Of a stretch of 64,000 nt of DNA, positions 2,662 to 61,463 are shown in pieces. The DNA is from Minisyncoccia bacterium. GTDB taxonomy: Bacteria > Patescibacteriota > Minisyncoccia > Phycocordibacterales > UBA5272. The stretch lies in assembly GCA_038256975.1 (NCBI GenBank), contig JBBSJU010000002.1, forward strand, positions 65,064 to 129,063, in the 5' to 3' direction. A program made the translations under genes and the position numbers. Under the pieces are notes generated by a model. It was not told where the DNA came from. It made no database searches and saw only the letters and a program-made list of their open reading frames with translations. Position 1 is the stretch's first letter, and each line of letters starts with the position of its first letter.

Positions 2662-3840
2662 TTAATTTATTTGAGTCTCTAAAGAAAGTCTGCCATTTGC
2701 ACGTATTGTCTCTGGCATTGAGGCTTGCATAGCATTTTTAATTTTTAGAAGTGCTGTGATTCCAATCATGAGTGCGTTGTCGGTTGATAAGTGTCGTTCT
2801 GGAATGTAGGCATGTACGCCAAGTTCTGCACACAGTGTTTGAATGTGTTCTCGAATGTATGTATTCGCAGACACGCCGCCGCCAATGATAAGTGTTTGTG
2901 CATTTGTATTTTGTAACGCTTTTCTACATTTTGAAATCAGTACTTCAGTAACAGCGTCTTCAAACTCGCGTGCGATTGCTTTTTTATCATCGTCGCTTAG
3001 AATTTTAAGTTTTTGAGTAAGGTAGAGTACCGCTGTCTTTATTCCAGAGAAAGAAAAATGAAGGTCACCCGAATGAATCATGGGACGAGGAAGTACTGGC
3101 ACTCGGTCGTTTACTAGATTTTCAGTACGTGCTTCTGCTGCGAGTTTAGAGATCTTTGGTCCGCCAGGATATTCAAGTCCAAGTAAGCGAGCTACTTTAT
3201 CAAATGCTTCACCAATTGCATCGTCGCGTGTCTCGCCAATTTTTGCATATGTTCCAAATTTTTCTATGTGGATGAGTTCAGTGTGTCCGCCTGAAATAAG
3301 AAGCGCAAGAGCGGGAAATGAGAGGCTCGGCACCGTGTATCCTTCACTATGTTTTTCAAGTACAGAAGAATAAATATGTCCCTCCATGTGGTTTATTGGA
3401 TAGAGTGGAAGGTTCCAGAGAGTGGAAAGCGCTTTGGCAAAATTAATGCCCACCCAAAGCGCAGGTTCAAGCCCAGGTCCGCTGGTTACAGCTATTGCAT
3501 CTACTGCTGGTTTTTGCCATGTTAAAACTTCAGGGAGTGCTTCAAGGAGTTCTGGTTCTTGGGGAAATAGGGAAATGAAAGATTCGGGCATTGCAATAGG
3601 TGTTCGGAGATTTAAAAGCTTGGCTTCGGTTAATGTTGTTTTGAGAAGTGGTACAAGTGCTTTAGCATGTTCTCGTTTAGCAACGGCGGGAAATACACCA
3701 CCATACTCTTTATGCATATCTATTTGTGAAAGCACTTGATTTACAAGTACGGTAAAAGAAAGAGGGGTAGTATTTCCGCTTGATTCGATAATGCTGAGTG
3801 CTGTTTCGTCGCAGCTTGTTTCAATAGCCAAAATTCGCAT
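2662..3840 (-). CDS. tsaD: tRNA N6-adenosine threonylcarbamoyltransferase (Kae1/TsaD family)
   Basis: MRILAIETSCDETALSI N-terminus, HMEGHIYS metal-binding motif, GGVSAN motif. 392 aa. Confidence 0.85.
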   Translation of the reverse strand: MRILAIETSCDETALSIIESSGNTTPLSFTVLVNQVLSQIDMHKEYGGVFPAVAKREHAKALVPLLKTTLTEAKLLNLRTPIAMPESFISLFPQEPELLEALPEVLTWQKPAVDAIAVTSGPGLEPALWVGINFAKALSTLWNLPLYPINHMEGHIYSSVLEKHSEGYTVPSLSFPALALLISGGHTELIHIEKFGTYAKIGETRDDAIGEAFDKVARLLGLEYPGGPKISKLAAEARTENLVNDRVPVLPRPMIHSGDLHFSFSGIKTAVLYLTQKLKILSDDDKKAIAREFEDAVTEVLISKCRKALQNTNAQTLIIGGGVSANTYIREHIQTLCAELGVHAYIPERHLSTDNALMIGITALLKIKNAMQASMPETIRANGRLSLETQIN

Positions 3841-3973
3841 ATGGGTATACTAGCATAGACTTGTTTTAAAATTTATCTAAAAATACAAATAAAAAAACCT
3901 CATAACGCTGCGTTACGGGTTGCTTTTTGCTCGAACTTTTCGAGCGGTATGTTGGATTCTTTAATCAGTAGGT

Positions 3974-4007
3974 GATCGGCGGCCGGATGATCATCCGGCC
4001 GCCGATC
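3974..4007. terminator. perfect 34-bp GC-rich palindrome (GATCGGCGGCCGGATGATCATCCGGCCGCCGATC) at the 3' side of the GC-rich islet gene
   Basis: Read directly in the sequence. It lies 45 nt downstream of the minus-strand stop at 4052, at the compositional boundary. Confidence 0.5.
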
Positions 4008-4051
4008 AATTGCGAGCTACTTACCATTACTGGTTTTCACCCGCAGTTGCT

Positions 4052-4624
4052 TCAGGACATGCCCTTGGTGGGGATCGGCACGATGCCGACGATGGAGCGG
4101 TTGACCTGCTTGAGCTCGCCGGAGGCCAGGCGCTGGTCGAGGTCGTTGTTCACGGCCAGGAGGAGCTTGGTCTCGTAGGCGAGGCCGCTCGTCTTGTAGT
4201 CGTCGAACGTGACCAGACCGGTCTTCAGAGCGTACGCGTCGATGTCGCCGATGCCGAGCATTGCAGCCTTGTCGGTCACACTGACCACCTCGGTCTCGGC
4301 CAGGCGTTCCGGCGTCGTGACCTTGTGCTTCAGCGCGACTGCCTTCAGCGTGTTGTACTCGGCCTGGTAGCGGACGAGGACCGTCTTGGCGGACGGACCG
4401 AAGAACGTCGCCAGATCGGTGATCGCCTTGATTTCGTCGTTCACCGCGATGGCGACGTTGCTGTCGAGCTTGCCGAAGAGGTTGATGTCCGTGTTCTGGT
4501 TGAAGGTCGTCGCAATCTGCTCGCCACTCACCGTATCGACGGCGACAGCGGCGTTGGCAGCGGTGCCTGCGACAGCCAGCGAGATGGCCATGGCAAGAAC
4601 GATCGTACGGGTGTTCGTCTTCAT
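4052..4624 (-). CDS. secreted protein of unknown function (signal peptide) encoded in the GC-rich islet
   Basis: 190 aa. N-terminus MKTNTRTIVLAMAISLAVAGTAANAAV fits a Sec signal peptide. Codon usage is high-GC, unlike the neighbouring genes. Confidence 0.55.
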   Translation of the reverse strand: MKTNTRTIVLAMAISLAVAGTAANAAVAVDTVSGEQIATTFNQNTDINLFGKLDSNVAIAVNDEIKAITDLATFFGPSAKTVLVRYQAEYNTLKAVALKHKVTTPERLAETEVVSVTDKAAMLGIGDIDAYALKTGLVTFDDYKTSGLAYETKLLLAVNNDLDQRLASGELKQVNRSIVGIVPIPTKGMS

Positions 4625-4887
4625 CGGGTATTTCTCCGTTTTGGGTTGGTTGGTGGCGCCAGCATCGCAATCGACTGTGTCGGTTTAGCGAGTAGCAGGG
4701 TAGGTACCTTAAAAAGATACGCACTCTGCTACTCGCTACTGCCTAATTGATTAAGTGAAAGAGCTAAAAATAAAAACGAGCTCACTTGAGCTGTTGAACA
4801 ATATAGCAGGGTACTAAGTTTTTGTCAAACATTTTATGGACAATCCAAAAATCCGTTGTATTTCAAGGATTAATTAGTAAGAATACC

Positions 4888-4936
4888 GTTTTTATTTGAA
4901 AAGAGGGTGTTTCAACTATCTCGTTGAAACACCCTC
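4888..4936 (-). terminator. intrinsic terminator of the 4942..5142 gene
   Basis: 14-bp stem GAGGGTGTTTCAAC/GTTGAAACACCCTC (4903-4936), followed on the minus strand by UUUUCAAAUAAAAA. Confidence 0.6.
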
Positions 4937-4941
4937 GCTTT

Positions 4942-5142
4942 CTATATGATTTCTTGTACATTGACGACTCCGTTGTTTGTAAAAACCTCCACTTGTTGAA
5001 CTAGATCTTCTTCTGTACCAGTAAAGACCAGAAAGAGCCGTTCTGAATCAAGTCTTTGTCCACCGAGCCCAAGTGTTTGAGTGTCTTCGTAAGCACTTAC
5101 ACAATCCGCCCGTGTCTCAAAATAGGCAATAAAAATCTTCAC
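4942..5142 (-). CDS. hypothetical small protein
   Basis: 66-aa ORF with its own terminator. No recognised family. Confidence 0.35.
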   Translation of the reverse strand: MKIFIAYFETRADCVSAYEDTQTLGLGGQRLDSERLFLVFTGTEEDLVQQVEVFTNNGVVNVQEII

Positions 5143-6454: not shown

Positions 6455-7033
6455 TTAACCAACCTGTCTGACCCAATCTCTGGTAATGCTTTCAATTCGC
6501 TCTTGCTCTAATTCAGGTAAGACGTTCGTATGCATGATGATGTTTCTTGAGAGCTCAAGATCATTAAATCTAGAGTTGACCCACGCTTGATCTGGGAAAA
6601 GATCAGAGAAATCTTCCCAGTTTCCAATTATTATCTGAGCCAGATTTCCGAACATAGTATAATAAATTAAAGATGAAGATGAAGACCTTTGCGTGTGGTA
6701 TTTATTTTTTGCTTCCTTTTCTTTTAAACCACTAGCTGCCTTTTTAACTCTTTCAGGAACACATAAATCCCACCAACCTAAACCTTGCCGCTCTGCTAGC
6801 CGAGTAGATATCAGTTCTCTGGCAGAGTTTTCCAAGCAGAAAAAGGCCACATATACTGACGCCATCTTTTCAGCATCATGGACCAGAACTGGATTAAAGT
6901 CATTTTCTTCAATTCTGGCTAACGGGCTAACATCAACATGTAAACCGATTCCCGTGTTTTCCAGCTTTTTCAACTCGTCTTGTGCTAGAAAACCATCGAA
7001 GACTAACCTTTTAAGGTGGCTTATTTTTTTCAT
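6455..7033 (-). CDS. HEPN-motif protein (R-x4-H near C-terminus); putative RNase toxin/abortive-infection effector
   Basis: 192 aa. The C-terminal helix carries LSRNIIMHTNV (R-x4-H), the HEPN catalytic signature. The start codon shares a nucleotide with the stop of the upstream partner at 7033. Confidence 0.5.
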   Translation of the reverse strand: MKKISHLKRLVFDGFLAQDELKKLENTGIGLHVDVSPLARIEENDFNPVLVHDAEKMASVYVAFFCLENSARELISTRLAERQGLGWWDLCVPERVKKAASGLKEKEAKNKYHTQRSSSSSLIYYTMFGNLAQIIIGNWEDFSDLFPDQAWVNSRFNDLELSRNIIMHTNVLPELEQERIESITRDWVRQVG

Positions 7034-7644
7034 TATTCCAATAAGTTATCTCTAATGCTTTTGAAGATAGAATTATAAACACTCACGTCCGTGGTAGCGG
7101 GTAAGTGAATCTGAATGTTGTAATGAAACTCTGCAGGAAGTCCAGAAACAACGAGTGGTTTTTCTTTTCGAATCCCTTCCTCGCTTTCTTTAAAGTCAGT
7201 TTTAATTTCTTTTGGTTGAGGAGAGTCACCAAATTTAGATAATCCAACAAGTGCTTTGAATGTATTGTAATACCGTCCAACAGTCGCCTCATCCTTACCT
7301 GTAATTCGAGAAAATGCCCCCTTTATCTCAACCTCTGATGCCTTATGGATTTCTTGGTCTGTTGCAAATAAATCTTTATATAAATCAATGACTCTTTCGC
7401 CCATTACGTATTGATGTTGAGAGGCATCTTTTAGCCGATCATACGAATCAGTGGGAGTTGCAGCTTCTGTTAGAAAACCTAGTTTCTTTAAAAGAGGAAT
7501 TATGGCTCTATCATTGGAACTACCAAACCCCATTTGCTTAAGAAACTCATTTGTATACTTTATTGGCCTAGCGGCAGCTTTTGCTTTCTGAAAAAAAGCA
7601 GGAAGTCTGTTATTGGAAATAACGTATGGATATGTGTCAGTCAT
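7033..7644 (-). CDS. partner of the HEPN-motif protein (hypothetical; possible antitoxin/sensor)
   Basis: 203-aa ORF that overlaps the downstream HEPN gene by one nucleotide. No known domain recognised. Confidence 0.45.
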   Translation of the reverse strand: MTDTYPYVISNNRLPAFFQKAKAAARPIKYTNEFLKQMGFGSSNDRAIIPLLKKLGFLTEAATPTDSYDRLKDASQHQYVMGERVIDLYKDLFATDQEIHKASEVEIKGAFSRITGKDEATVGRYYNTFKALVGLSKFGDSPQPKEIKTDFKESEEGIRKEKPLVVSGLPAEFHYNIQIHLPATTDVSVYNSIFKSIRDNLLE

Positions 7645-7892
7645 GTTTTATATTTAGACTTATTATTCTATATAATAATCTTATACCTCATAGCAATATA
7701 AATCAATGAGTCAGATATTATGTCAACTATGGGGTGCTGTCCGGTATTGGATTAGTATTTTCACTATTGGAATCAAGTACTTCACGCACTGCAGTTCGAC
7801 ATCTGTCTCGATTAGGTTCACAAATACAAAAAAGAGCTACGACCACAAAGTGCAAAATGGCGATATAATCAGTATATAGCCTTAATTACGTC

Positions 7893-8618
7893 ATGAAATA
7901 CTTTAATGTAACCCAAGAAGAAATCGACTTGAGAATGTTCAATATTTTTGTTGGAATAAGTCTTGGTAACAAATTGCTAACTCCTGAACTTTGTAAACAT
8001 TATGTAGAGTGGGCACACAGAAATACAAAAGATAATTGCGTTATATTAATAGCTGATAAAATAGATGCCGTTAACTGGCAAATTTTTAGAGGGCTTTCTA
8101 GAGAAGAGTCTTTGGAGAAAGTAAAAGATAAAGGGTATGGAATTTTAGGCATGTTTGAAAAAGCAAAGAGAACTCTCGCCAAAGAAAAAGAAGATGCGAG
8201 CTACATTTCCAGGGTACATATTATATTTTGGGAAGATATAGTTAATGAAGGCTATACGGAACTCAGAAAAATATTAAATGATGAATACGAAAATAATTTA
8301 GAATTCAAAGAAAGAGTATTGTATTTTGTGAATAAATACTGCGAACTGAGAGATGTTAGTATTCTGTCAGCCGAAGATAAAGATAAGTTGGCTGGCTATA
8401 TTATTGATGAGTTACCGACGCTAATTGGTGGAATATATTGGGATGAAAAGTTGTATAACATGATATTGTATCCAACATACGTAGACAGCGGGATGAGTGA
8501 ATTTGTTTTAGATATTCGTGGTGGGAAATATTTTCATGCAGATAAATTAAAATTAAGACAAATCTGTGTTCTTGTTGAAGACTATCTAGAAAAACCTAAA
8601 ACTATTGAAAAAGAATAG
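7893..8618 (+). CDS. tRNA-dependent cyclodipeptide synthase (CDPS) homologue
   Basis: 241 aa. FNIFVGISLGNKL matches the CDPS Rossmann pocket motif (AlbC IGISAGN, YvmC VGISPFN; catalytic Ser in G-I-S). GYIIDELPTLIGG matches the catalytic Y-x-x-x-E-x-P block (AlbC NYVLAEAP, YvmC EYVIAELPFFIG). W-A...D-x-I...ID spacing resembles AlbC QWAGQRFERTDVVYVDTHID. Confidence 0.65.
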   Translation: MKYFNVTQEEIDLRMFNIFVGISLGNKLLTPELCKHYVEWAHRNTKDNCVILIADKIDAVNWQIFRGLSREESLEKVKDKGYGILGMFEKAKRTLAKEKEDASYISRVHIIFWEDIVNEGYTELRKILNDEYENNLEFKERVLYFVNKYCELRDVSILSAEDKDKLAGYIIDELPTLIGGIYWDEKLYNMILYPTYVDSGMSEFVLDIRGGKYFHADKLKLRQICVLVEDYLEKPKTIEKE

Positions 8619-9738: not shown

Positions 9739-10107
9739 ATGAAAGACAAGGGTTTTGCAGAGTATGTTGTAGGGGATTTGTTCGGCTATCTCGATGATGT
9801 TTCTGCTCGAGCAATGTTTGGTGGTTATGGAATATACAGAGGCGGGGTAATGTTTGGACTCATTGCTGAAGGAGAGTTGTATTTTAAAGTAAGGGAGGGG
9901 GAAACTAAAAAATATGAGCCTTTTGGCAGTAAACCATTTCACTATAGTCGTAAAGATAAAGGAGCAATTACAATGTCATATTGGTGCATACCTGAAGAAG
10001 TTCAAGAAGATCCTCATTTGTTTCGTGAATTGGCTGAAGAATCCTATGAGTTTGCGCTTGAAAAAGCCGTCAAAAAGAGCTCAAAAAAGAAAGTGGTGCG
10101 GAAGTAG
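9739..10107 (+). CDS. TfoX N-terminal domain protein
   Basis: FGGYGIYRGGVMFGLIAEGELYFKV resembles the TfoX_N domain. 122 aa. Confidence 0.45.
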   Translation: MKDKGFAEYVVGDLFGYLDDVSARAMFGGYGIYRGGVMFGLIAEGELYFKVREGETKKYEPFGSKPFHYSRKDKGAITMSYWCIPEEVQEDPHLFRELAEESYEFALEKAVKKSSKKKVVRK

Positions 10108-21579: not shown

Positions 21580-22272
21580 TTACGGGGTTTTAGTTAAAAC
21601 GTCCACTGAGCCAGGAAAAAGTGATATCTGGGTGAATGGATAGAGGCGTACGAGCGTTCTTCCAATGATTTGCGTTCGTTTAATGGGGCCGATTTGCCGT
21701 GAATCAAGGCTCAGTGGTCGATTGTCTCCCATCATGAAGTATTCATCTGCGCCGAGCGTCAAAACCTTTTTTGTTCGCCCGTCTGTATTTTTAATGTACG
21801 TCTCATTGAGTATAAGCCCTTCAGGATGAGTATTGTTTGTAACGATGGTGGTTGTGCCATCAATAGTGATCTGTTCTCCTGGAAGCCCAATGATCCGTTT
21901 AATGAGGTATCGGTTGCCATTTTCTGGACCAGATTTGAATACTACTACGTCACCACGTTTAGGTTCTTCCAAAAAAGTGTATGAGAATCGATCGACAATA
22001 ATGTAATCGTATGGTTCAAACGTCGGTACCATCGAAGTTTGCTGTACGAGAAATGGTTGAATAAGGAAGGTTTTAATAATCGTAAAGAAAAATCCAACTG
22101 TCGCAATAAAACGGAGCACTTCTTGAACCTTTGCGTACCATGCCGCACGTCGTGCCACAGCGCGTTCCTCCTTTGTTTTCCTCAGGTTGTATAAAATAAA
22201 AAAGAACTCAAGAATCTGATCTGCTATCCAGTCCAGGGGGTTTCGCATAAAATATTTTCTATAGTGTATCAT
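21580..22272 (-). CDS. lepB: signal peptidase I
   Basis: N-terminal TM anchor, SMVPT (catalytic Ser box), LIKRIIGLPGEQI, GDNRPLSLDSR. Confidence 0.8.
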   Translation of the reverse strand: MIHYRKYFMRNPLDWIADQILEFFFILYNLRKTKEERAVARRAAWYAKVQEVLRFIATVGFFFTIIKTFLIQPFLVQQTSMVPTFEPYDYIIVDRFSYTFLEEPKRGDVVVFKSGPENGNRYLIKRIIGLPGEQITIDGTTTIVTNNTHPEGLILNETYIKNTDGRTKKVLTLGADEYFMMGDNRPLSLDSRQIGPIKRTQIIGRTLVRLYPFTQISLFPGSVDVLTKTP

Positions 22273-24370: not shown

Positions 24371-24401
24371 CCTCAGCGCGGTCCCCATGACCGCACTGAG
24401 G
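24371..24401 (-). terminator. hairpin (CCTCAGCGCGGTC..GACCGCACTGAGG) downstream of the GC-rich islet gene pair
   Basis: Near-perfect 13-bp inverted repeat just past the stop at 24409. A T-rich run follows on the minus strand. Confidence 0.45.
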
Positions 24402-24408
24402 AAGATTC

Positions 24409-24642
24409 TCAGGCAAGAATCAGACTCATTCGCTGATCCTGACGTTGCCCTGCGTTGCGTTGACGGGCTTCTTGGGTCAGGTTTTTCAGTGCCGCTTGGC
24501 ATCGCTGTCGATCATCAGCAGGGATCTTTCCTTGCAGGGCAGCATTCAGCCTTGCTGAACTCTCCGTGATCGTAGACATAGGGGTCTGTCCATTTACCGT
24601 GCGACCCTCGCGGATCGCTTGATTGAGAAGTTCGCGACTCAT
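24409..24642 (-). CDS. hypothetical small protein (GC-rich islet), translationally coupled to the upstream gene by an ATGA overlap
   Basis: The internal Met of ORF 24409..24750 sits exactly at the stop of the upstream ORF. The minus-strand sequence reads ATGA at 24639-24642. Confidence 0.4.
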   Translation of the reverse strand: MSRELLNQAIREGRTVNGQTPMSTITESSARLNAALQGKIPADDRQRCQAALKNLTQEARQRNAGQRQDQRMSLILA

Positions 24643-24908
24643 GCTTGTACTCCTTGCTGTTGGAACGAAAGTGCCCGTGCCGGGCGTTCCGAGGATGTAA
24701 GTCCCCGTCGTTGCATTTCCAATTTCAATACCAGACGATGAGCTTTCCACTCACGTAGAGTTTCGCTGGTGAAGCCCTGGGCGCCAGCATTTGCTTCGTC
24801 AATCTTGTCGTCGAGCGCACGATGCGCTGCGACAATACGGCTATCCGGCATCGCACCGGAAATATTTTGTGCGACACTCACAGCGCTTTCGATGGAGATG
24901 TTCGACAT
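24639..24908 (-). CDS. DUF465 (YdcH)-like small protein (GC-rich islet)
   Basis: 89 aa. AAHRALDDKIDEA...ETLREWKAHRLVLKLEMQRRG resembles the coiled DUF465 pattern. High-GC codon usage. Confidence 0.4.
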   Translation of the reverse strand: MSNISIESAVSVAQNISGAMPDSRIVAAHRALDDKIDEANAGAQGFTSETLREWKAHRLVLKLEMQRRGLTSSERPARALSFQQQGVQA

Positions 24909-25058
24909 GATTACCTCGTGAGCCCCTTTTGAGTAAACTACAATGTATTCGGGCTTTTAAATACAGAGTAGTCTTTATAAAGAACAACCTTTCCTTTATA
25001 CTACTAAACTCATTTTTGTAAAGGCTACTGTCCCCAGGTTCCTTGATACAATTAACGC

Positions 25059-29081: not shown

Positions 29082-29203
29082 GAAGGTAGTATAGCAAAAA
29101 GGTGCTTATTTAATAATAAAGATTAGGTGTTTGACTAGTGTCTATTTTAATGTTAATGAATTAAGGTAATCACGGATGGTCCGTGAAGGGAAAAGGAAAA
29201 AGA

Positions 29204-29782
29204 ATGAAGCTGATCTTTATTGTGCTGCTCTCTGTACTTTCCAGTTCTGTATTTGCTGGCGGTGGCAACGTGCAGTTTCTGTATGCCACTGATCCAGGAG
29301 CTACGGTTACTCCGGAGTATCTCTGGAAAGGTGAAAATTGCGGAGGTCTCAGTTTTGTGGACCTCTACGAAGATTCCAGGTTTTTTACGAACAATGTTAT
29401 CGACTGCGCAGTCTCCGACAATTTCTTCGTTGGTACTGAGCTTTCCGCAAACAATCGTGGAGAGACCGCCAAGCTCGGTATCGGAAGATCTTTTTCCGTT
29501 CCGGGTATGAAGGTCTTCCGGGTCACTGCGTATCCTGGTGTTTGGAGTGAGTTTGGCGACCAGCCGCAAGTGAAATTTGTTTGGTTGACCAATGATTGGC
29601 AGCTGACCGACACCTTAGCGATGTATTCCACTGGCTTTTTTCGCGCCAGAAAAGATGCTCCAGATCTCTATCAGCCGCAGGTGTGGCTGAAGAAGGAGGG
29701 GATAAATTTTCAGCTTGGATGTGAGGTGCTGGGAGTTGGTAATCACTCTGATTTCCAGATCGCCATCAAATATGTGTTTTGA
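29204..29782 (+). CDS. secreted beta-rich protein with an OMP-like C-terminal beta-signal (…FQIAIKYVF)
   Basis: Signal peptide MKLIFIVLLSVLSSSVFA. The last nine residues alternate hydrophobic residues and end in Phe. Confidence 0.45.
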   Translation: MKLIFIVLLSVLSSSVFAGGGNVQFLYATDPGATVTPEYLWKGENCGGLSFVDLYEDSRFFTNNVIDCAVSDNFFVGTELSANNRGETAKLGIGRSFSVPGMKVFRVTAYPGVWSEFGDQPQVKFVWLTNDWQLTDTLAMYSTGFFRARKDAPDLYQPQVWLKKEGINFQLGCEVLGVGNHSDFQIAIKYVF

Positions 29783-61220: not shown

Positions 61221-61463
61221 ATGACGCGGTGTAAAGAGGTCTTTCCAATGAAAACTTTCAGTAAAATTTTCGTGGTTGCCGGGCTGTTTGCTCTTACTTT
61301 CATCCTGGTTTCCAGTGGTTACGCAATTGTTTCCGACCGTAGTTTTTTCGCCGCTGCTGGCACAGTTGCCCTCTGGCTGTTCACAGCTCTGGCTTTCTTG
61401 ACCCTCTTTTTTTCCACCTGGCTGACAACCACAGACGGTCGCCGCGCCGCTTTGGGGCTGTAG
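61221..61463 (+). CDS. hypothetical small membrane protein
   Basis: 80 aa, two TM helices. Confidence 0.35.
   Translation: MTRCKEVFPMKTFSKIFVVAGLFALTFILVSSGYAIVSDRSFFAAAGTVALWLFTALAFLTLFFSTWLTTTDGRRAALGL

Follow-up and report, generated by a model that had tools for sequence, protein, structure and literature searches.

Atypical GC content is a standard heuristic for recognising foreign DNA. The amelioration model of Lawrence and Ochman reportedly describes horizontally acquired islets that carry such atypical GC. This article concerns a GC-rich islet of that outward kind, which surrounds a gene for a protein of 190 amino acids (aa). It lies at 3970-4740 of a 64,000-nucleotide stretch of DNA, called the window below, from Minisyncoccia bacterium (assembly GCA_038256975.1, contig JBBSJU010000002.1, positions 65,064 to 129,063). 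Like amelioration-type islets, it is short and sharply bounded, has atypical composition and codons, is found near tRNA genes, and moves horizontally. Unlike them, it has no donor lineage that could be found, it occupies a locus that is syntenic across a clade, and its composition is unameliorated despite saturated divergence. The 55-point excess of GC at third codon positions (GC3) is here native and conserved, and the heuristic fails.

A second group of described systems consists of hypervariable loci at which alleles are replaced between conserved flanks. Examples are the pneumococcal comC and blp pherotype loci, the staphylococcal agr specificity groups, and pilin and surface-antigen loci. 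The islet shares with these loci divergent alleles at one site, conserved flanks that serve as arms, incongruence between allele and backbone, and an apparently exported product. It differs in the codon composition of its alleles, which is radically unlike that of the genome, in its arms, which are structured RNA elements of the untranslated regions (UTRs), and in its host, a member of the candidate phyla radiation (CPR). The islet is an unusual variant of a hypervariable allele-replacement locus, distinguished by a maintained, extreme GC3 bias and by new covarying UTR motifs.

Recombination is also linked to base composition. Recombining bacterial genes are GC3-richer, most strongly at synonymous sites, and use codons that are not optimal in the host (Lassalle et al. 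2015, PMC4450053). The islet resembles genes under such GC-biased gene conversion (gBGC) in that a recombining gene exceeds its neighbours in GC3, foremost at synonymous sites, and favours host-non-optimal codons. It differs in that the contrast is limited to a single gene, has no gradient into the flanks, and is accompanied by strand-specific and context-specific signals.

Stabilised bacterial mRNAs offer a further comparison. They include the ompA 5' UTR, Bacillus aprE, cryIIIA with its STAB-SD, the long 5' UTRs of S-layer genes, the cry1Aa 3' retroregulator, and the 5'-3' fold-back of hok. The islet has a similar set of parts: a strong promoter, a hairpin at or near the 5' end, a GC clamp before the terminator, and possible complementarity between the two ends. 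In the known systems, however, the stabilisers are found in the UTRs only and the coding region has normal codons; the islet elements match no Rfam family. A single 0.7-kb unit couples extreme synonymous bias, allele swapping and covarying UTR structures, together with two relaxed controls among its relatives, the contigs L016 and L018.

Composition of the Islet

GC content is 0.595-0.645 in 200-nt windows across 4001-4700, against a mean of 0.410 for the 64-kb window (standard deviation 0.057, 150-nt windows). This region is the sole stretch of more than 250 nt in the 64 kb with a GC content of at least 0.55. The whole GC-rich span, 3970-4740, has 0.60-0.65 GC (0.62 overall), and the Candidatus Paceibacterota genome around it has 0.41. 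An earlier note on this DNA had judged the jump by eye to about 60% GC and had proposed sliding-window GC analysis as a check. The computed values agree with that estimate, and the deviation is strong. The compositional comparison involves two genes:

4052..4624, minus strand: coding sequence (CDS) of the 190-aa protein, with a signal-peptide-like N-terminus, GC3 0.895, and a ratio of nonsynonymous to synonymous divergence (dN/dS) of 0.13-0.47
2662..3840, minus strand: tsaD, the conserved downstream neighbour and syntenic anchor, GC3 0.29

The 190-aa open reading frame (ORF) had already been picked out as the one plausible gene of the islet, and that choice is borne out by purifying selection among its orthologues, expressed in the dN/dS above, and by an alignment in which all indels are multiples of three. 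Its GC fractions at the first, second and third codon positions are 0.58, 0.40 and 0.895, so that the excess lies almost wholly at third positions. The 50 other ORFs of the window have a GC3 of 0.336±0.054 with a maximum of 0.51, which places the islet gene at z=10 above them. Its third-position bases are C 0.56, G 0.34, T 0.08 and A 0.03, compared with A 0.32, T 0.35, C 0.18 and G 0.16 in the background; the strongest depletion is that of A. The codons AAG, CAG, TTC, TAC and AAC account for 100% of use within their respective families. The gene is dominated by CTG, GTC, TCC, ACG and GCC, which make up only 6-15% of their own families in the host.

GAPDH and the ribosomal proteins L21 and S16 are encoded by housekeeping genes that are normally expressed at a high level. 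In this genome they have GC3 values of 0.24, 0.35 and 0.30. Because these genes lack the bias, it is not the genome's general response to translational selection, and that source was rejected.

A second, milder GC-rich patch is present at 24376-24925 on the minus strand. It has 0.55-0.57 GC and contains two ORFs of about 80 aa each.

A Maintained Equilibrium

The behaviour of this composition over long divergence can be seen by comparing the window with a related contig, L011. In tsaD the synonymous divergence (dS) between the two is 1.1-1.25, and in murB it is 1.5-1.65. Identity at four-fold degenerate sites in these genes is 0.36-0.47 and GC3 is 0.25-0.29. The islet gene has a four-fold identity of 0.37, which means that its sites are randomised, yet GC3 is 0.89 and 0.87 in the two sequences. 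Amelioration toward host composition is not seen on either side of this saturated split.

Because these four-fold sites are randomised yet GC-rich, some directional force must be holding GC3 at an equilibrium of about 0.9. DNA left over from a high-GC donor would have ameliorated by this degree of divergence, and thus the GC-richness is not a relic. Polarised substitution counts, which are small, give an implied equilibrium GC3 of 0.7-0.97 in most lineages. The GC3 of about 0.9, against 0.34 around it, is an actively maintained equilibrium that is sharply confined to the cassette.

The same state is found in most of the family. GC3 is 0.71-0.93 in 9 of 11 members, on contigs of 0.36-0.44 GC; the individual values among the relatives are 0.80, 0.93, 0.79, 0.87, 0.83, 0.86, 0.71 and 0.85. 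The GC state has been relaxed in one intact and one frameshifted lineage. The intact gene is that of L016, with a GC3 of 0.45, and the frameshifted one is that of L018, with 0.56. The reading frame of L018 (356-1006) is kept for 116 aa, and the remainder, towards the C-terminus, is read in the +2 frame. These two sequences serve as natural relaxed controls.

A Native Locus

The islet belongs natively to a Paceibacterota clade, in which its locus is vertically syntenic. The gene lies upstream of tsaD in the window, L003, L010, L011, L013, L016 and L018, and tsaD is adjacent in every locus whose contig extends far enough. The earlier note had proposed to look for the islet in related genomes. 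Patchy presence at the locus was not seen among gene-bearing relatives, which were the genomes surveyed; genomes without the gene were not included. The syntenic order is tRNA genes, promoter, leader, islet gene, tsaD, and then a convergent murB. In every relative with visible flanks, the gene sits in AT-rich DNA.

The protein family is small. Searches gave 5 matches among 5.8 billion clusters and 9 clusters among 1.84 billion representatives (exhaustive HMMER), and the related protein clusters number about 12 in total among 15 billion proteins. A 12-sequence profile search of 5.8 billion proteins added no members, and the protein had no matches in JGI metagenome contigs, IMG/VR, plasmids or phages. 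The sole source annotation in the family reads “hypothetical protein [Minisyncoccia bacterium]”. One relative, L010, is a GTDB species representative, a Candidatus Paceibacterota metagenome-assembled genome whose protein is 99% identical.

In the window, the neighbours of the islet are tsaD, murB, a 66-aa ORF at 4942-5142 on the minus strand, a deaminase gene, and the gene of a HEPN_Swt1 protein. The 66-aa ORF and the deaminase gene stand where four lineages have a gene for tRNA-Val(GAC). This tRNA gene lies directly upstream of the islet promoter (L001 420-494, L002 244-318, L003 48-122, L016 233-307), and tRNA-Ser(CGA) is also found near the locus. A 14-bp hairpin at 4903-4936 follows just past the stop codon of the 66-aa ORF. 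It is probably the terminator of that ORF and would separate it from the islet promoter.

The Expression Unit

The presence of a promoter, a Shine-Dalgarno sequence and a terminator makes the AT-rich leader and the GC-rich CDS one coherent expression unit. Read in the direction of transcription, its parts other than the CDS are as follows:

4800..4828, minus strand: near-consensus sigma-70 promoter (TTGACA, 17-nt spacer, TATATT, extended -10 TG), 11 of 12 matches, kept in 9 of 11 aligned leaders
4764..4792, minus strand: small hairpin GCUCAAGUGAGC with a U-run after it, where the transcript is predicted to begin; this 28-mer occurs once in the window
4744..4756, minus strand: 5' box (the right-hand inverted 12-mer), complementary to the 3' box, with an equivalent pair in relatives
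4684..4739, minus strand: leader hairpin of about 24 bp, with arms at 4686-4710 and 4714-4738 that are 84% complementary in the window; the 3' arm, 4684-4703, is the crossover zone
4625..4683, minus strand: allele-specific GC-rich spacer (0.58 GC) that holds a small hairpin and a strong Shine-Dalgarno sequence, GGAG, about 9 nt before the ATG
4011..4045, minus strand: 3' UTR element 1, with a P1 stem, a GAAA/AGUAG internal loop, and an inner hairpin P2 capped by a GNRA tetraloop
3973..4008, no strand assigned: perfect 36-nt palindrome, the GC-rich 3' clamp hairpin, with 18-nt arms and no spacer
3960..3972, minus strand: 3' box (the left-hand inverted 12-mer), complementary to the 5' box, with an equivalent pair in relatives
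3891..3945, minus strand: small hairpin GCUCGAAAAGUUCGAGC (3929-3945), then an intrinsic terminator with its stem at 3901-3917 and a U-tract

Several of these elements had been noticed before. The note reported a perfect palindrome 3' of the gene, a second hairpin 5' of it, and imperfect inverted 12-mers at the islet edges, and all three are there. The 34-mer that it gave as the palindrome is the core of the 36-nt one, and the second hairpin spans 4686-4738 with 25-nt arms. The edge 12-mers alone are short enough to occur by chance, and relatives have an equivalent complementary pair at both positions.

The leader is conserved far more than the CDS. In the leader hairpin, 94.6% of the aligned cells are paired and 9 of 24 pairs are compensatory, a level reached by 0 of 500 shuffles; controls in which the structure was slid along the alignment collapse. 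In 3' UTR element 1, 100% are paired and 7 of 10 pairs are compensatory, and the GNRA-capped inner hairpin is found in 8 of the 9 full-length loci that were folded. Two well-supported RNA structural motifs are thereby added to those known. A search of 3800-4900 against Rfam 15 gave only sub-threshold matches to miRNA-type hairpins, and a scan at the gathering threshold gave tRNAs only.

At the clamp position, every lineage has a perfect GC stem of 12-18 bp, the sequence of which is unrelated between lineages. The palindrome of the window is a 1-nt deletion variant of the hairpin in L010 and L013. The pairing of the 5' and 3' boxes is suggestive, and it is energetically significant in L015 only, where the two form a perfect 14-mer complement (z=-3.5). 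Elsewhere 7-9 bp can pair, and one A:U pair is swapped to U:A between lineages. The GCUCAAGUGAGC hairpin is a candidate 5' protective stem-loop or attenuator.

The design is not tied to one protein, since L011 has a second module with the same leader hairpin and a GC-rich body. This module, at 7800-8210, stands between the islet gene and tsaD and is served by a separate TTGACA promoter; its leader hairpin occupies 7879-7942. Its ORF MKKNSFVQCGISGTFAISTAGLGAHAIIAG (7997-8089) encodes a hydrophobic peptide of 30 aa, is GC-rich, and is followed by a GC-rich 3' UTR and a terminator. The peptide had no match among the locus sequences compared in this analysis; no database-wide search was made for it.

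The leader motifs occur once in the 64 kb. A probe made from the hairpin arms found nothing in viral contigs, and its sole match elsewhere was in L017 (JADMIO011683281.1, 2190-2246), between fliC and fliD in a high-GC genome. That sequence is an unrelated hairpin of GAGTAGCAGAGT repeats, apparently matched by chance, and was rejected as a true relative.

Exchange of Alleles

The interior of the unit, consisting of the spacer and the CDS (about 4040-4700), behaves as an allelic cassette, and deeply divergent alleles are exchanged between genomes through recombination in the conserved UTR arms. The evidence comes from two pairs of genomes. The window and L010 have flanks that are 72-87% identical, with a tsaD nucleotide identity of 0.777 and dS of 1.70. 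Identity is as high as 93-100% between about 4703 and about 3830, and the CDS has 7 differences in 573 nt (dS 0.036). The reverse is seen between L010 and L013. Their flanks are 96-100% identical, with a dS of 0.13 over the first 51 codons of tsaD, and identity across 4683-4038 is only 34-68%; the two alleles are 47% identical in amino acid sequence. Thus, diverged backbones can share a near-identical allele, and one backbone can carry very different alleles.

The upstream crossover maps to 4684-4703, which is the 3' arm of the leader hairpin, and the downstream one to the stop codon or just beyond it. Contigs from five samples share an identical CDS, and two of the contigs, L006 and L007, differ at 7 of 36 nt right after it. 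Cassette-only contigs from five samples end at the recombination arms, the pattern that would arise if assembly graphs forked at the points where backbones diverge. These contigs are suggestive of several alleles coexisting in one population.

The simplest mechanism for this exchange would be DNA uptake followed by homologous recombination in the conserved arms. It is suggested by the lack of a nearby recombinase together with the presence of a competence regulator. Pfam scans of the window flanks and of the genes called on L011, L016 and L018 revealed no recombinase, integrase, transposase or reverse transcriptase. A homologue of the TfoX N-terminal domain is encoded near the locus (window 9739-10107, plus strand; L011 2307-2675), which is compatible with natural transformation as the route. 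Involvement of a diversity-generating retroelement, another retroelement or a recombinase was considered and rejected, as no such gene is nearby and there is no repeat copy of the CDS. The variety of alleles may reflect balancing or diversifying selection that acts on an exposed protein.

Proposed Selection on the Transcript

The reading tentatively preferred here, only slightly ahead of gBGC, is that selection on the transcript maintains the GC content and that a high rate of recombination makes this selection effective. In this model, selection acts against A/U-ending codons and A/U runs. Its product would be a heavily structured, RNase-resistant and long-lived mRNA, from which a protein could be made in quantity in a ribosome-poor cell. 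Frequent recombination at the locus would allow selection that is weak at each site to be effective.

Five observations favour transcript-level selection. First, the GC edges of the cassette are sharp, and there is no GC3 gradient into tsaD (in five genomes, the first 40 codons have a mean of 0.35, compared with 0.28-0.42 further in). Second, the non-coding body of the transcript is also GC-rich, both in the spacer and in the 3' UTR of the second module of L011. Third, A is depleted at third positions. Fourth, the remaining A/T-ending codons avoid A/U runs beyond the expectation from synonymous shuffles in 10 of 10 members (mean z -1.41; background genes -0.17±1.16). Finally, the GC codon set changes the predicted folding energy from -0.26 to -0.38 kcal/mol/nt, which makes the transcript about 50% more stable.

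Several points weigh against this reading. A specific RNA structure in the CDS is unsupported, as its structure is no more specific than that of synonymous shuffles (z -1.7 to +0.3). Selection at each site for a bulk property of an RNA can be expected to be very weak, and the bias is missing from the ribosomal-protein genes of this genome. The effect on A/U runs is modest, and the members in which it was measured are not independent. Avoidance of UpA is generic across this genome and was discarded as a special signal of the islet. Literature searches found no precedent for the proposed mechanism. The recombination itself is read from mosaics in a few metagenomic contigs, for which strain-level switching during assembly is conceivable. 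Such switching is unlikely, since the sequence shared at the junctions is only about 13-20 nt, which should be shorter than typical assembler k-mers.

A broader conjecture, and a rather unlikely one, is that these CPR bacteria run a class of expression cassettes undescribed before, hairpin-led and armoured with GC. The leader hairpin and the 3' elements would define a processed and exceptionally stable transcript, and the same RNA-defined boundaries would also delimit the exchanged unit. The GC-rich body would be selected because the message persists or spreads in ribosome-poor episymbiotic cells.

Alternative Explanations

Another model for the GC-rich state is gBGC, which is possible but on balance doubtful. 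The locus would be a recombination hotspot at which heteroduplex repair, biased from AT to GC, drives unconstrained sites GC-rich without any benefit to the cell. The model has the attraction that recombination is directly demonstrated and that the exchanged unit coincides with the GC-rich part. GC3 is raised specifically in the recombining segment, and both synonymous sites and the non-coding spacer are enriched. The GC-ending codons of the islet are rare in the host, as in other recombining bacterial genes (PMC4450053). The CDS has no specific RNA fold, and gBGC requires no fitness effect at individual sites.

The same recombination also raises difficulties for gBGC. Tracts exchanged within a species should reach the flanks, yet no GC3 gradient extends into tsaD. 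Alleles that are 35-60% divergent swap their interior wholesale, so that no heteroduplex would form there. The size of the effect is a further problem. The genome-wide GC differences of the Lassalle study are said to be far smaller than the islet contrast, and a GC3 increase of 0.55 seems far above the differences known from bacteria. In addition, the bias has a strand asymmetry (C 0.56 exceeds G 0.34, and T 0.08 exceeds A 0.03), GGG and CGG are avoided, and the avoidance of A/U runs depends on context, all of which point to selection.

Viewed from its other side, the conjecture of hairpin-led cassettes given above would make the islet the most extreme known example, for a single prokaryotic gene, of GC enrichment linked to recombination, and the long-running debate between gBGC and selection could be tested directly at one locus. 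The islet is a compact natural system in which gBGC and mRNA selection can be separated in bacteria.

Control of translation through codons is improbable as the source of the bias. In this model, G/C-ending codons that are rare in the host tie translation to particular tRNAs, in a reverse counterpart to the bldA/TTA system of Streptomyces, or slow elongation so that the protein can be exported co-translationally. The codons that dominate the islet gene are indeed minor ones in the host; GTC, for instance, provides 63% of its valine codons and 10% in the host background. The gene for tRNA-Val(GAC) directly upstream of the promoter in four lineages, with tRNA-Ser(CGA) nearby, would fit such a dependence. 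However, tRNAs of the GNN type read NNC and NNU alike, and most of the bias therefore creates no dependence on a particular tRNA. The non-coding spacer and the 3' UTR of the L011 module are GC-rich as well, which also speaks against it.

Two other small ORFs of the window also bear on this model. They lie at 29183-29782 and 61221-61463, both on the plus strand, and have signal-peptide-like N-termini, mildly raised GC3 (0.51 and 0.55) and no Pfam match. They hint that other exported proteins may share the bias in a weak form.

A somewhat less probable alternative is that the islet is a site-specific mobile cassette. The leader hairpin and the inverted boxes would be the sites of a dedicated recombinase, by analogy with integron attC sites, IS200/IS605 or REP/RAYT elements, and the GC-richness would come from the pool of cassettes. 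The crossover does fall in the 3' arm of an imperfect 55-nt hairpin, the inverted boxes bound the unit, and two hairpin-led modules stand in tandem in L011. As a small single-ORF unit that has such a hairpin, is exchanged between genomes and stands in tandem in L011, the islet is similar to integron cassettes with their attC sites. Unlike attC, which is 3' of its gene and conserved in structure, the islet hairpin is 5' of the ORF and highly conserved in sequence, and the unit has its own promoter and terminator. No R''/R' core-site pair (RYYYAAC / GTTRRRY) flanks the hairpin, and no IntI was found in Pfam scans of the neighbouring genes. Comparison with miniature inverted-repeat transposable elements and insertion sequences gave no direct repeat flanking the boxes. 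There is one copy in the 64 kb, the chromosomal site is always the same in relatives, and no integrase, transposase or reverse transcriptase turned up in the scanned flanks or on L011, L016 and L018. Ordinary homologous recombination also yields crossovers in conserved arms.

It is very unlikely that the cassette was acquired recently from a high-GC proteobacterial or actinobacterial donor and has not yet ameliorated. Its atypical composition, its sharp edges, a codon usage like that of high-GC bacteria, and a position next to tRNA genes in relatives are what such an event would leave. The earlier note had accordingly seen a compact, horizontally acquired cassette and expected a match from a high-GC donor of this kind. 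Part of that view stands, since the islet does move horizontally as a compact unit; its foreign high-GC origin does not, and the alleles are exchanged among related Paceibacterota at one conserved locus. The expected match did not appear. No homologue was found outside the AT-rich clade among 15 billion proteins, plasmids and phages. The locus and its GC contrast are the same in genomes whose housekeeping dS is saturated, four-fold sites remain GC-rich after randomisation, and no integrase or other mobility gene is encoded nearby.

Long overlapping ORFs on both strands had been taken in the note as spurious, and also as a mark of foreign DNA. The first half of this judgement is right; the ORFs are by-products of the near-absence of A-ending codons. 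One of them is at 4017-4724 on the minus strand, and another, on the other strand, is the following:

4010..4750, plus strand: antisense ORF of 246 aa in the exact-complement frame, a by-product and not a gene

Dual coding, in which the GC3 bias would keep this ORF open as a second protein, is hardly credible. The exact-complement frame is stop-free in 10 of 10 GC3-rich members and has 9 stops in the relaxed member L016. This is so because the codons TTA, CTA and TCA are absent from the sense gene, and an open frame needs only these three to be avoided, not all A/T-ending codons. The first position of the antisense frame coincides with the sense third position and is the fastest-evolving (identity 0.56-0.62, against 0.70-0.82 elsewhere). 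There is no conserved start codon or Shine-Dalgarno sequence, and the composition of the translation is typical of antisense read-through of GC-rich DNA.

An assembly chimera, in which a fragment of a high-GC organism was joined into a Paceibacterota contig, had been raised in the note as the less likely case and has a negligible probability: composition does switch abruptly at hairpins, which can confuse assemblers, but the same AT/GC/AT junctions recur in independent assemblies (L001-L003, L010-L013, L015, L016, L018), the arrangement of promoter, leader, GC-rich gene, UTR and tsaD is shared by at least 8 independent contigs that differ in sample and assembler, and the AT-rich leader and GC-rich CDS form a coherent expression unit.

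The Encoded Protein

The protein is apparently exported via the Sec pathway, as predicted from its N-terminus. A Sec signal peptide had been assigned to it in the note, and a rule-based check of 12 members agrees. The N-terminus has a net positive charge in 11 of them, the hydrophobic 12-mer has a Kyte-Doolittle mean of 1.8-2.8, and A-x-A-type cleavage sites occur at residues 24-29. A gene for signal peptidase I is present in the window at 21580-22272.

The mature protein of about 160 residues evolves fast, with a nonsynonymous divergence (dN) about 4 times that of tsaD. High dN and allele swapping together would fit an exposed protein under diversifying or balancing selection. As a lineage-specific, fast-diversifying and apparently exported protein, it may matter for the surface and host-interaction biology of uncultured Paceibacterota.

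Searches of Pfam, NCBIfam, PHROGs and PDB sequences found no family match. An AlphaFold2 model made from 12 sequences has a mean confidence (pLDDT) of 82.8, with about 72 for the N-terminal strands beta1-beta2. Foldseek searches of PDB and BFVD with this model return DnaQ-like exonucleases of the DEDD type, at TM scores of 0.5-0.59 and about 10% identity. The matches are RNase T, Pol III epsilon, and the exonuclease domains of family B polymerases, and in them the putative signal peptide serves as beta1-beta2. No member of the 12 has a DxE motif in its first 22 residues, 10 of the 12 have no D or E there, and no acidic residue is invariant anywhere across the family. Membership among the DEDD 3'-5' exonucleases is unsupported, as the acidic motifs Exo I, II and III are not conserved and there are no matches at the sequence level.

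Other Observations

A HEPN_Swt1-like protein encoded at 6455-7033 on the minus strand adjoins a DUF5343 protein at 7033-7644 on the same strand. Together they may form a toxin-antitoxin or defence module. The stretch at 7893-8618 matches cyclodipeptide synthase weakly, below the threshold.

One of the contigs, L005, begins with an Illumina TruSeq adapter (1-42) that is fused to the leader of the islet gene, an instance of adapter contamination in a public assembly.

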